DNA of 38,080 nucleotides from positions 1-38,080 of the IMG/VR virus record IMGVR_UViG_3300020020_000100; one strand, 5' to 3'. Under the pieces are notes generated by a model, which was not told the DNA's origin, did no database searches, and saw nothing but the letters and a program-made list of their open reading frames with translations. This DNA comes from a virus (lineage: Duplodnaviria > Caudoviricetes). The position numbers and the translations under genes are program-made. Shown one piece after another: positions 357 to 31,567 of the stretch. The first letter of the stretch is position 1. Every line of letters starts with the position of its first letter.

Positions 357-410
357 GGCATTCCCCTATTTTGGGCCAAGCGCCCAGCACTTTGTAACAC
401 GAATTGCCCG

Positions 411-605
411 TCATGCATCCGCCTTGGCGCGGGCCTTCATGGCCTCGATGACCTTGCGCTTGGTCGCCTCGCGCGGCTCCCGGCCTGATCGAAGGTCCGA
501 GACAAAGCACGGATCACCCGCCATCTCGCGCCCGAAGGTCGTCGGCGACCAGCCTCGATCACGTAGGAACTGCTCTACACGGTTTTTGAACATTGTCAGG
601 GTCAT
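411..605 (-). CDS. Cro-like helix-turn-helix regulator
   Basis: 64 aa. FLRDRGWSPTTFGREMAGDPCFVSDLRSGREP matches small Cro/XRE-like proteins of alphaproteobacterial phages. First gene of the leftward arm. Confidence 0.75.
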   Translation of the reverse strand: MTLTMFKNRVEQFLRDRGWSPTTFGREMAGDPCFVSDLRSGREPREATKRKVIEAMKARAKADA

Positions 606-610
606 GCGCT

Positions 611-639
611 TAGGTAGACGCCTACGCTTTTTTTGTCAA
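611..639 (-). promoter_or_regulatory. Leftward sigma70-type promoter, likely giving a leaderless cro mRNA
   Basis: TTGACA (639-634), 17 nt, TACCTA (616-611); ATG lies 5 nt further on with no SD. Confidence 0.55.
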
Positions 640-655
640 TGTGCGAAAATATCTG

Positions 656-684
656 TTGACGGCATGTCAGACATATCCTACATG
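656..684 (+). promoter_or_regulatory. Rightward sigma70-type early promoter with palindromic operator candidate
   Basis: TTGACG (656-661), 17 nt, TACATG (679-684). The spacer contains the palindrome ATGTC-A-GACAT (664-674). Confidence 0.55.
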
Positions 685-963: not shown

Positions 964-1011
964 GATCGAAACCCTTCGGGGTCTAGCGGTGAGGCCGCTA
1001 CTGAAGAGATC
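964..1011 (+). ncRNA. Hammerhead ribozyme, type II
   Basis: GATC-GAAA-CCC-TTCG-GG-GTC-TAGCGG-TGAGG-CCGCTA-CTGAAGA-GATC. It has both core strands (GAAA, CUGANGA), a GUC cleavage triplet (981-983), stem III with a UUCG loop, a 6-bp stem I and an open stem II GATC/GATC. Fully intergenic. Confidence 0.9.
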
Positions 1012-1028: not shown

Positions 1029-1157
1029 ATGAAGAAACTGATTTTCGCACTCACAGCCCTGACCGTTCTGGGCAGCGCCACAGCCTACGCCGCCAACTGC
1101 ACCACCCGCTGCAACTGGGTGTTCAAGACGTGGACGTGCACCGAGACTTGCTACTGA
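1029..1157 (+). CDS. Small exported cysteine-rich peptide (42-aa precursor)
   Basis: Below the ORF-track size cut-off. MKKLIFALTALTVLGSATAYA-ANCTTRCNWVFKTWTCTETCY*. SD AAGGA, signal peptide ending AYA, mature part with CxxxC...CxxxC. Confidence 0.85.
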   Translation: MKKLIFALTALTVLGSATAYAANCTTRCNWVFKTWTCTETCY

Positions 1158-1173: not shown

Positions 1174-1210
1174 GGGATGCGGACCAAGGGTCCAACTTGG
1201 CTCGCATCCC
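1174..1210 (+). other. Intergenic stem-loop (processing or termination site candidate)
   Basis: GGGATGCG...CGCATCCC outer stem with inner CCAAG/CTTGG; no strong U-tract. Confidence 0.4.
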
Positions 1211-29603: not shown

Positions 29604-29849
29604 CTATGCGGGCGCTCTCGAAGAGGGTCGCTCCTCACGAGTACCACTGTTGGCCGCGATTTCCAAGGCGTCTCTGAGCCGTCGTATGGCCCGCACGTTG
29701 GCTAAAGCCTCATTGCGGAAATCATGCGCCCCCGGAACCGCCATGACGGCCGCATCGACCTCGTTGCGCTCCATTTCGGCGAGCAGCTCAGTGACCAGCC
29801 TGTCGTGCAGCATGGTCCGCGCCGCAGCCTGCTTTTCGGTCGGCTCCAT
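29604..29849 (-). CDS. Small conserved head-module protein
   Basis: 81 aa, helical; TGATG coupling; usual position between portal and scaffold. Confidence 0.7.
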   Translation of the reverse strand: MEPTEKQAAARTMLHDRLVTELLAEMERNEVDAAVMAVPGAHDFRNEALANVRAIRRLRDALEIAANSGTREERPSSRAPA

Positions 29850-31567
29850 CAGGATTGTCCTCCGCCCTGCTGGGCCTGTAGCTGGTCGGCCATCTGCTGG
29901 GTGATGAGGCCCGCGCCGAGCGCGCCCGCAATGCCATACTTTTTCACGATGTCGATGATTTCATCGCTGAACACGACATAGTTGCGCGAGCCTTGCGTAC
30001 CGTCTCCACCGCGTGAGCCAGCGTCTAGGTACTTGATGCCGGGAATGCCCTTCTCGCGCATCGCTTCGGTGAACTTTGTCGAGTTCCCCTTGCCGAGTTC
30101 GTTGATGAAGCGTCCAACGTCAGCCTTGTACTCATAGCCGCCCTCCTTGGTAGGAGCAGCCAAGAAGCGGTCGTCGTAATAGCCGCTGGTTCCAGGGGGA
30201 GGCAGTAGGCCAAGCAACGCATCCTTTGCGGCTGGCTGCTCACTCAGCGGCTTATCCCAATCGAGGAACGCGTCAGGATCGGCGTTGATGTTGACTTCGT
30301 ACATGTGGCCGCCATGCTTCAGATCGAGGCCACGCTCCTCCATGCGCTGAAGCGACAGTTTCTGGTCATTGAGGCTCGACCACAGATCGAAGTTGCCCTT
30401 CTCCTGCGCCAACCGCATGCCGTTTTCTAGATCGGCTCGAACCTTGGCAGCGGCCTCAGCGGCGGTAGCCTGCTCACTCCCCGTCACCGTTTGCGCCTTG
30501 GCCCAACTGCTCAGCCTCGCGGCAACTGTAGCGTCGGCATCGGTTTTGTTGAAAATGCCCAGCCCCGTTGTCGGAGTGATCTCTTCACCGCCCGCCAACA
30601 CCTTTGGGCGGTCTGCCAACTTGTTGCGATAGTCCTTCGCCACGCCTTCGTTCTCGGCGAAGTACAGCCCATGCCCATACGCCTGTGCGCCCTCGCCTGT
30701 GCCGATCTTGGAAAGGTCGAACCGCTCAAAATCATGCGGCGTGCCGTGATAGGCCCTGATTTGCTTCTGCGCTGCCTTGACGGCAGGGACGATTGACGCG
30801 TTCTTCGGATCGAGAACCATCATCTCCTGATGGGCATATCCCGCGGGCGAATAATCCAGCACCACGCCGTCATGGCCGCGCTCCCTCAATGCTTCGGAAA
30901 TAGCAGCCGCATCAGCGGCCTTCGGCAATCCGAGTTCCGCCTTGACCAATTCCGACTTGTCGGTCCTCCAGTCAGGCATGCTCAACTGAAGCGGATTGGA
31001 AAGCCCGACATCGGCCTCATATTGGTGCGGATACCCTTCCGCCACCCTGCGGTCGGTGGACAGGTAAATGCCCTGCCCCAGTTGCCCCGCATCTGTCGCG
31101 GTCCCCATCTTCGATGGGTCGAACTCGGTCAGGCCGGGAACCTTGGAGCCGTGATAGCCACGGATAGCCTTCTGCGCTGCCTTGACGGCAGGGACAAGCT
31201 CGTCAGCCGCCTTGCCGGGGAGCAACGACATGGCGAGCATGCGCGGATCGCCGCCCTGCAGCGTGTTGCCAATCTCCGTGCCGATGTCAAAAGCCTCCTG
31301 CGGCACATTCACGAAGTCGGACAGATTAGTCACCTTCTCGGCCATGTTCGAGGCCGCCCGCTCCGAAGGCGCAATGGCTCCGAACAAGGACTCCAGCCCG
31401 CTCCTGACCCAGCCGCGCGGCCCCTCTGTGGGCGACGCCGTCACCACGTCCTGCGGCATGTAGGCGGGGTCCACGCCGGCATGGAACGGCTCCAGAGCGC
31501 TCATGGCCGGCGACGGCGCGCCGTAGCCAAAGCCGAGCAGTTCACGCAGGCGGCGCGGATCAGCCAT
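29849..31567 (-). CDS. Protein with two tandem ADP-ribosyltransferase-like (ART-PolyVal-type) domains
   Basis: Domain 1: YHGS...EFD...LGQGIYLS...AEGY...NPL...GHDGV...HQEMMV. Domain 2: YHGT...RFD...GHGLYFAE...AKDY...GIPGIKY...RNYVVF. Coupled to the portal gene (TAATG). Confidence 0.7.
   Translation of the reverse strand: MADPRRLRELLGFGYGAPSPAMSALEPFHAGVDPAYMPQDVVTASPTEGPRGWVRSGLESLFGAIAPSERAASNMAEKVTNLSDFVNVPQEAFDIGTEIGNTLQGGDPRMLAMSLLPGKAADELVPAVKAAQKAIRGYHGSKVPGLTEFDPSKMGTATDAGQLGQGIYLSTDRRVAEGYPHQYEADVGLSNPLQLSMPDWRTDKSELVKAELGLPKAADAAAISEALRERGHDGVVLDYSPAGYAHQEMMVLDPKNASIVPAVKAAQKQIRAYHGTPHDFERFDLSKIGTGEGAQAYGHGLYFAENEGVAKDYRNKLADRPKVLAGGEEITPTTGLGIFNKTDADATVAARLSSWAKAQTVTGSEQATAAEAAAKVRADLENGMRLAQEKGNFDLWSSLNDQKLSLQRMEERGLDLKHGGHMYEVNINADPDAFLDWDKPLSEQPAAKDALLGLLPPPGTSGYYDDRFLAAPTKEGGYEYKADVGRFINELGKGNSTKFTEAMREKGIPGIKYLDAGSRGGDGTQGSRNYVVFSDEIIDIVKKYGIAGALGAGLITQQMADQLQAQQGGGQS
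30764..31195 (-). repeat. 27-bp perfect direct repeat bounding ART domain 1
   Basis: CTTCTGCGCTGCCTTGACGGCAGGGAC at 30764-30790 and 31169-31195 (405 bp apart, 135 codons), encoding VPAVKAAQK. Confidence 0.9.

Follow-up and report, generated by a model that had tools for sequence, protein, structure and literature searches.

The window, the whole stretch of 38,080 nt analysed here, is an entire virus record with an estimated completeness of 91%. Its minus strand was found to contain terminase, portal, scaffold, capsid and DNA-ejection genes, and an operon on the plus strand contains exonuclease, NinB, GcrA and HNH genes; from the GcrA gene we infer an alphaproteobacterial host. The gene described here (1029–1157, plus strand) encodes a small four-cysteine peptide and is the second gene of this operon, which diverges from an HTH gene (411–605, minus strand), and the virion genes begin several kb from it. 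Besides, a minus-strand ORF at 3–356 with a signal-like start encodes an exported-type protein that runs off the end of the record; it showed no Pfam or PHROG match and is reminiscent of PEP-CTERM-type surface proteins. Another minus-strand ORF (29849–31567), located between the portal and scaffold genes, showed ART-PolyVal ADP-ribosyltransferase and endolysin-like domains, and its product is predicted to be a polyvalent-type protein.

The small, Cro-like HTH gene matched a transcriptional regulator family (phrog_4779, E 5e-4) and has an orthologue in the same place in a related locus, L488. The region between this gene and the early operon (605–711) is a divergent control region without a CI gene. 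Neither an integrase nor a CI-type repressor was found among the 49 window ORFs scanned in this 91% complete record, and the phage is possibly lytic with a lambdoid layout. A -35-like hexamer, TTGACG (656–661, plus strand), is kept in L488 and likely marks a rightward early promoter; a leftward TTGACA can also be read from 639, and the window contains no full promoter according to a strict sigma-70 scan. TTGAC[AGT] was present within 130 nt upstream in 7 of 16 four-cysteine loci of the peptide family described below, compared to about 0.09 expected per locus. Repeat searches showed, on the plus strand, a first CAACCAAGGA repeat (693–702) that contains the ribosome binding site of an 83-amino-acid ORF (711–962), a second CAACCAAGGA repeat (1011–1020) that contains the Shine-Dalgarno sequence of the peptide, and a third repeat, CAACCAAG (1225–1234), which precedes the following early gene, whose ATG is at 1246. 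The 83-amino-acid ORF showed no match in the scans, could not be assigned to a family and is missing from L488. A long bulged RNA hairpin (1174–1210, plus strand; z -5.3 for 1158–1245) follows the stop codon of the peptide and was retained in the L488 alignment with changed inner pairs (z -3.5); it is a possible RNase III or pause site.

The peptide gene is translated into 42 amino acids followed by a stop codon (MKKLIFALTALTVLGSATAYAANCTTRCNWVFKTWTCTETCY), and a Shine-Dalgarno sequence, AAGGA (1016–1020), lies 8 nt upstream of its ATG. Judged from sequence features in the usual Sec layout, residues 1–21 (1029–1091) form a predicted signal peptide with an MKK start, an 11-residue stretch (residues 4–14) with a mean Kyte-Doolittle value of 2.63 and an A-Y-A motif ending at residue 21; signal-like starts of this kind occur throughout the family. 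Cleavage after A21 would give a mature peptide of 21 residues, ANCTTRCNWVFKTWTCTETCY (1092–1157 including the stop codon), cleavage after residue 19 or 22 being a conceivable alternative. The cysteines are spaced as C24-x3-C28-x8-C37-x3-C41, and the side-chain net charge is +1. The first-pass annotation had described a signal peptide followed by a four-cysteine peptide of little net charge with a symmetric CxxxC-x8-CxxxC arrangement around WVFKTW, and these sequence features were confirmed. An ORF with this cysteine pattern occurs once in the window; it was found in 4 of 500 dinucleotide shuffles and, in combination with a signal-like start, in none of the 500. Homologues keep the signal and all four cysteines. 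A chance ORF was rejected, and the ORF is a real gene; its GC3 of 0.83 is similar to that of two neighbours (0.77). It had been expected that gene callers would miss this ORF, but the exact protein is already present in a predicted-protein collection (in a cluster of three) and in the ESM Atlas, and those listed relatives that bear a name are annotated as hypothetical. A lipoprotein was rejected: the A-A-N-C sequence at C24 does not fit the lipobox, and a match to LPAM_1 was sub-threshold and spans residues 1–14 only.

Comparison with L488 showed that part of the upstream region is an insert of about 350 nt carrying the 83-amino-acid ORF and a hammerhead ribozyme. L488 aligned to window positions 409–664 (211 of 256 identical) and resumed at 1011 (139 of 148 identical). 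It contains neither the 83-amino-acid ORF nor the ribozyme, and the peptide gene is the first gene after the HTH/promoter region. The second CAACCAAGGA repeat forms the right edge of the insert; this edge repeat, CAACCAAGG, has another copy before the 83-amino-acid ORF. Within the peptide gene, L488 differs from the window by four synonymous codons and one signal-peptide change. Besides, one low-depth contig from run X1 joined 661 to 1011 through 35 other letters, and one contig in X2, a run of the same sample, which may be the source of the window, departs from the window at 1009. Thus, relatives without the insert have the peptide as their first early gene, and a ribozyme cut after C983 would restore a near-leading position in the window, with a 45-nt leader.

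The ribozyme (964–1011, plus strand), absent from the first-pass annotation, was identified as a compact type II hammerhead by its fold, a pairing descriptor, a model score and covariation in relatives, and it ends 17 nt before the peptide ATG. It folds as a three-way junction with GAAA, GUC and CUGAAGA in type II order, consisting of stem II (964–967/1008–1011), GAAA (968–971), stem III with a UUCG loop (972–981), GUC (981–983), stem I (984–989/995–1000) and CUGAAGA (1001–1007). Stem I and stem III are both closed and stem II is open, and the type II core motifs CUGANGA, GAAA and NUH are all present; self-cleavage is predicted after C983. The descriptor matched the window only at this site and matched none of 1000 shuffles. 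A model built from 30 copies in other phages gave the window 63.6 bits, a score that is not fully independent because the pattern used to recruit the training loci was derived from the window. RF02276, the Rfam Hammerhead_II model, did not match in the window at the gathering score or at E ≤ 10; three copies in a related locus, L129, passed it. A longer hammerhead in locus L519, which the 30-copy model missed, was detected by the descriptor.

A tight hammerhead pattern was found at 80 viral loci, all of which (80/80) satisfied the pairing descriptor; a loose pattern returned mostly noise. Most of the 80 are followed by a small gene at a distance of about 20 nt, and some form arrays with one ribozyme per gene. 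The six stem I positions are paired in each of the 67 distinct copies (66 relatives and the window), and in an alignment of 30 rows 450 of 450 cells were paired, with compensatory change in 8 of 15 pairs. No consistent complementary run was found for a pseudoknot between loop I and the 3′ tail in the 67 copies. A loop I U (67/67) and an A after stem II (64/67) suggest a single U-A tertiary contact; an extract of PMC6155905 mentions a conserved reverse Hoogsteen pair. The viral loci L122–L201 carry compact type II hammerheads with a GAUC stem II, a 6-bp stem I and the invariant loop U, and one-per-gene arrays were observed in, e.g., L129, L192, L195 and L200; Rfam detects only some copies of this family.

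Perreault et al. (2011, PMC3088659, in the sections available) described type II hammerheads in prophages as flanking single small genes of varying identity and suggested that they split long transcripts into gene-length mRNAs. The window ribozyme has the topology and core of these RF02276 elements, but differs in its 6-bp stem I with a 5-nt loop, GAUC stem II and 3-bp stem III, in being a single copy, in scoring below the Rfam listing limits and in showing no clear loop-tail pseudoknot. The ribozyme type is thus already known, and the window contains a compact variant. A hammerhead was found to precede the peptide in only 1 of 107 family loci and in 2 of the 16 other four-cysteine loci examined (L454 and L519). 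A role as fixed partner of the peptide family was rejected on the count of 1 in 107, and the ribozyme is an accessory expression device, separate from the function of the peptide.

By its sequence, the peptide is a member of a widespread unnamed family, defined here as the CTTxC-loop-CTxTC exported phage peptides. Members are short, have a signal-like start and a C-x3-C-loop-C-x3-C-x-stop layout, and are mostly located in early phage operons; the window peptide shows the signal-like N-terminus, the C-x3-C-loop-C-x3-C core and a stop codon within 1–3 residues. Two forms were found, a four-cysteine hairpin and a six-cysteine three-strand form (CxxxT..G..CTTCC..CTTTCx), the former corresponding to the latter without its first strand. 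In L329 (1447–1566) and L425, a four-cysteine member matches the six-cysteine L367 minus the segment between two CTT repeats; this could be a natural deletion, and a route by which the forms interconvert, or an assembly artefact.

The first-pass annotation had treated the peptide as a one-off and had proposed a homologue search for conserved cysteine spacing with a variable loop. This search revealed a large family, with more than 100 relatives keeping the export-type signal and the cysteines while the loops vary. A single-sequence word search with the query matched only a 98%-identical twin, and a codon pattern for the query's cysteine spacing gave one look-alike in seven loci. A variable-loop Cys/Thr DNA pattern, which contained no signal-peptide requirement, matched 119 viral and 31 genome loci; 110 of 151 pattern matches were short in-frame ORFs with an ATG 14–45 codons upstream (81 distinct), and 79 of the 81, judged by eye, consisted of a signal peptide and a Cys/Thr core. 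A profile from 15 four-cysteine sequences matched 209 proteins. Among the 120 of these matches that were listed, 119 were four-cysteine peptides ending one residue past the last cysteine, with loops of 4 (70 peptides), 5 (1), 8 (27) or 9–11 (21) residues. An exhaustive phmmer search with the query gave seven matches, including six short aromatic-loop relatives, from which a profile was built that listed 19 proteins; in the alignment of this subfamily (18 members) only M1, K2 and the four cysteines are invariant. A loose W..W DNA pattern gave no convincing gene in at least 81 open-frame matches. Against a profile of 96 other cores, built without the query, the mature core of the query scored 24.5 bits, a value reached by none of 1000 random and 26 of 1000 shuffled decoys with fixed cysteines; the profile that had collected these 96 cores contained the query or its twin in 2 of its 15 rows.

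An independent near relative, L482, has the mature sequence YNCTTRCHWVFNQWTCNETCY; over the last 22 codons it differs from the window by five non-synonymous and two synonymous changes that spare the cysteines and tryptophans, and it is located near an integrase. L454 and L519 share the same signal type and an upstream hammerhead, and differ in their loops (YGNT versus YWIGNQQY). Alignment of the aromatic and six-cysteine groups with hhalign gave a probability of 90, which rests largely on the signal peptide. The six-cysteine form was strongly conserved over differing phage neighbourhoods. In PHROG, Pfam, NCBIfam and PADLOC no family entry was found, each weak match involving at most two members, and the ESM Atlas gave unnamed clusters only (0.83–0.84 for the query, 0.93–0.94 for a six-cysteine member); PagK (0.77 in the ESM Atlas) was a weak lead and was rejected as a relative. 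In tblastn searches against GenBank phages, the query and one four-cysteine member gave no match, and one six-cysteine member matched two uncultured records annotated as hypothetical; no isolated model phage carrying the family was thus found. No description of the family was found among the papers listed in literature searches, although small-protein catalogues may include it in their supplements. The family is seemingly undescribed, and it probably works like known periplasmic phage effectors.

AlphaFold2 predicted strands at residues 24–31 and 34–41 with a two-residue turn between them, in a register that pairs C24 with C41, C28 with C37 and W30 with W35. The confidence was modest (mean pLDDT 67, pTM 0.30), with higher pLDDT in the mature part. 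The hairpin and register proposed in the first-pass annotation were borne out by this model; the nested disulphides that would staple it (C24–C41 and C28–C37) are predicted from the register. The six-cysteine form was modelled as a three-strand meander (pLDDT 76). The PDB showed no sequence match and no significant fold match, as expected for a hairpin too small for fold searches to be informative.

To characterize the six-cysteine neighbourhoods, 55 neighbour ORFs were scanned, picked from 109 after near-duplicates and doubtful frames had been dropped. Replication or recombination genes accounted for 21, HTH genes for two and terminase or endolysin genes for four, and none of the 55 was a tail gene. 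The peptide operon of L513 is convergent with a DNA ejection gene, and similar large convergent ORFs, for which PHROG gave no match, are present in L501, L505, L509 and L510. Members with Gly-rich loops were found as single copies in bacterial chromosomes (4 of 151 genomes of one sampled family, 47 candidates being scored per genome). These chromosomal copies are in non-phage settings, and the scaffold thus also has non-phage uses. An alphaproteobacterial Gly-loop member in L455 (2504–2647, minus strand) lies downstream of a CtrA-like response regulator and converges with cheR, and those in L523 and L524, also on alphaproteobacterial chromosomes, lie beside DUF2158 and a transporter-like ORF. 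Upstream of the peptide, L509, L510, L513 and L501 share a GC-rich motif about 60 nt before the start; it is a possible H-type pseudoknot immediately ahead of the ribosome binding site and showed no match in Rfam. L521 and L522 have GC-rich, apparently structured leaders 140 nt upstream of the start of aromatic-loop members; these leaders match neither the hammerhead descriptor nor Rfam.

With its early position, predicted export, putatively cysteine-locked scaffold and exchangeable loop, the peptide is best read as an envelope-protein binder. Our leading interpretation, which we hold tentatively, is that of an immediate-early periplasmic binder of a host envelope protein that would block superinfection; of the functions suggested in the first-pass annotation, those most in keeping with the early position are superinfection exclusion and inhibition of an envelope protein. 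The peptide would be made at the very start of infection, exported by Sec, cleaved after A21 and oxidized in the periplasm to a two-disulphide β-hairpin. The ribozyme cut after C983 would free its message from the 83-amino-acid ORF, leaving the 45-nt leader protected by stem I. By analogy, the hairpin may then bind an envelope protein through its aromatic loop (W30, V31, F32 and W35) or a free strand edge, so that later phages would be unable to adsorb or to eject their DNA; the Thr/Cys core would serve as scaffold and the exchangeable loop as specificity element. The target protein, the binding by the loop and the exclusion outcome are proposed by analogy only. This interpretation is consistent with the invariant cysteines and variable loop, the hairpin model, the early-operon position, the loop exchange on one scaffold in L454 and L519, and the replication, recombination or HTH genes that make up 23 of the 55 six-cysteine neighbours.

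Known early periplasmic phage proteins of a similar size class serve exclusion, as described in extracts of PMC7677548 and PMC9586334. T4 Spackle (gp61.3) is there described as an early, soluble periplasmic protein with a signal peptide that acts in superinfection exclusion (PMC7677548), and the peptide resembles it in being the product of an early phage gene with a predicted signal peptide and a predicted periplasmic location. However, Spackle, a binder of the gp5 tail lysozyme, has 105 amino acids with the signal included, whereas the mature peptide has 21 residues and is predicted to be all-β; similarity between Spackle and the family was found over signal residues 1–22 only (E 1.7), the mature part being unmatched. 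T5 Llp is an exclusion lipoprotein that is small, periplasmic and disulphide-bearing; Llp and Cor are early products that block envelope proteins, and Llp and Cor-like genes adjoin a receptor-binding or tail-tip gene (PMC9586334, in the part available). The peptide is likewise small, early and predicted to be periplasmic with disulphides, but Llp and Cor are lipidated and longer, whereas the peptide has no lipobox, an even number of cysteines and no tail-gene neighbour.

Several observations argue against exclusion. No tail gene was found in the 55 six-cysteine neighbours, unlike for Llp/Cor-like genes, and in the window the virion genes are several kb distant. The conservation of the six-cysteine form is more in line with a general function or a conserved host target than with phage-specific exclusion, and Gly-rich-loop copies occur in non-phage chromosomal settings. 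Besides, the model confidence is modest, the changes in L482 are five non-synonymous versus two synonymous, and 26 of 1000 shuffles reached the score of the query core.

The lack of tail-gene linkage, the six-cysteine conservation and the chromosomal copies raise the alternative of a conserved host target, which we consider somewhat unlikely. Here, the hairpin would mimic the C-terminal strand of an outer-membrane protein or a PDZ ligand, inhibit a periplasmic machine or stress sensor (presumably of the BamA, LptA or DegS/DegP/Prc type) and damp envelope defence. The last residue is aromatic in 97 of the 118 listed four-cysteine matches and in 14 of 18 members of the aromatic subfamily, an aromatic end is kept in extended tails (SEW, TMY, TAY, NAY and SAY), and 93 of the 118 listed matches end in [STN]-x-[FWY]; conservation across differing phages is strong, and chromosomal copies exist. 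However, the four-cysteine count is biased by the collecting profile, only 30 of 63 six-cysteine forms have an aromatic end, and in Gly-loop members the last residue is often S, R or N. β-signals are characterized by hydrophobic alternation, but the terminal strand face of the peptide bears Thr instead. A broader possibility, rather more speculative, is that these peptides represent an extensive, overlooked library, encoded by tailed phages of Gram-negative bacteria, of disulphide-stapled hairpins with swappable loops, in some lineages freed as single-gene messages by their ribozyme, that reach the periplasm in the first minutes of infection and inhibit conserved envelope machines (such as BamA, the Lpt bridge or PDZ stress proteases).

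A Spackle- or antiholin-like activity, in which the peptide would bind, in the periplasm, either the holin or a muralytic or ejection protein from the virions of incoming related phages, is unlikely. Virion proteins of this phage do have endolysin-like domains, and the L513 operon converges on an ejection gene, as those of L501, L505, L509 and L510 do on similar large ORFs. Such convergence may only mark the meeting of early and late units, though; linkage to an ejection gene is absent in the window and in most six-cysteine loci, and a conserved peptide is not expected to follow diverse virion enzymes.

It is quite improbable that the four or six cysteines bind Cu or Zn or serve as a thiol sink. 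CxxxC pairs, and six-cysteine forms with CC and frequent His, would suit this role, but the even cysteine numbers, the exact cross-strand symmetry in the model and the oxidizing destination favour disulphides, and no named neighbour is a metal-handling gene. Self-assembly of Thr-rich hairpins into sheets or fibrils that act physically in the periplasm or after lysis appears slightly less probable again. Thr occupies the positions C1+1, C1+2 and C3+1 in 110, 112 and 114 of the 119 listed peptides, and the charge is near-neutral; however, the high Thr content is partly a product of the search pattern, and the aromatic subfamily keeps the cysteines without a Thr ladder.

The first-pass annotation had also offered a diffusible phage signal, which we regard as very improbable. 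Like arbitrium AimP, the peptide is small, phage-encoded and of secreted type, but AimP belongs to a Bacillus system with the AimR receptor adjacent (PMC11323111, as far as the extract describes it), whereas PHROG and Pfam scans of the neighbours found no receptor-named gene and no constant receptor gene adjoining the peptide. The early location beside an HTH gene would suit a signal; on the other hand, AimP_fam was touched by only 1 of 29 six-cysteine members (E 0.034), and the scanned ORFs of the 91% complete record include neither an integrase nor CI. In addition, porins should not let a folded peptide of about 2.5 kDa through the outer membrane.

The least probable alternative by our estimate is a membrane-active antimicrobial released at lysis, since the CxxxC-x4-CxxxC spacing of tachyplesin in 70 of the 119 listed peptides and the predicted two-disulphide hairpin are set against a charge of +1 in the query, -1 to +1 in the subfamily and 0 in 57 of the 119, and no sequence match in the PDB. 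β-hairpin antimicrobials depend on overall cationic charge, according to the available part of PMC13001179. The peptide is similar to tachyplesin, polyphemusin and protegrin in having 17–21 residues and a hairpin with two disulphides, predicted in our case. However, the tachyplesin group is animal, cationic, amidated and membrane-disrupting, whereas the family is near neutral, Thr-rich and of phage or bacterial origin, and no sequence link between them was found.

Periplasmic phage effectors are poorly catalogued, and this one looks common, very small and built as a fixed scaffold whose loop varies. Should it block an envelope machine or the entry of phages, exclusion or host-takeover factors would gain a new structural class, and the family would provide ready-made, macrocycle-like leads of 21–30 residues against Gram-negative envelope targets; the peptide is accessible to chemical synthesis, which makes the question directly testable. 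If the library interpretation is true, these peptides would be natural phage counterparts of hairpin-mimetic antibiotics. The compact hammerhead family, partly missed by Rfam, marks early phage genes cleanly and permits a test of the old proposal that early transcripts are divided into gene-length messages by phage ribozymes.
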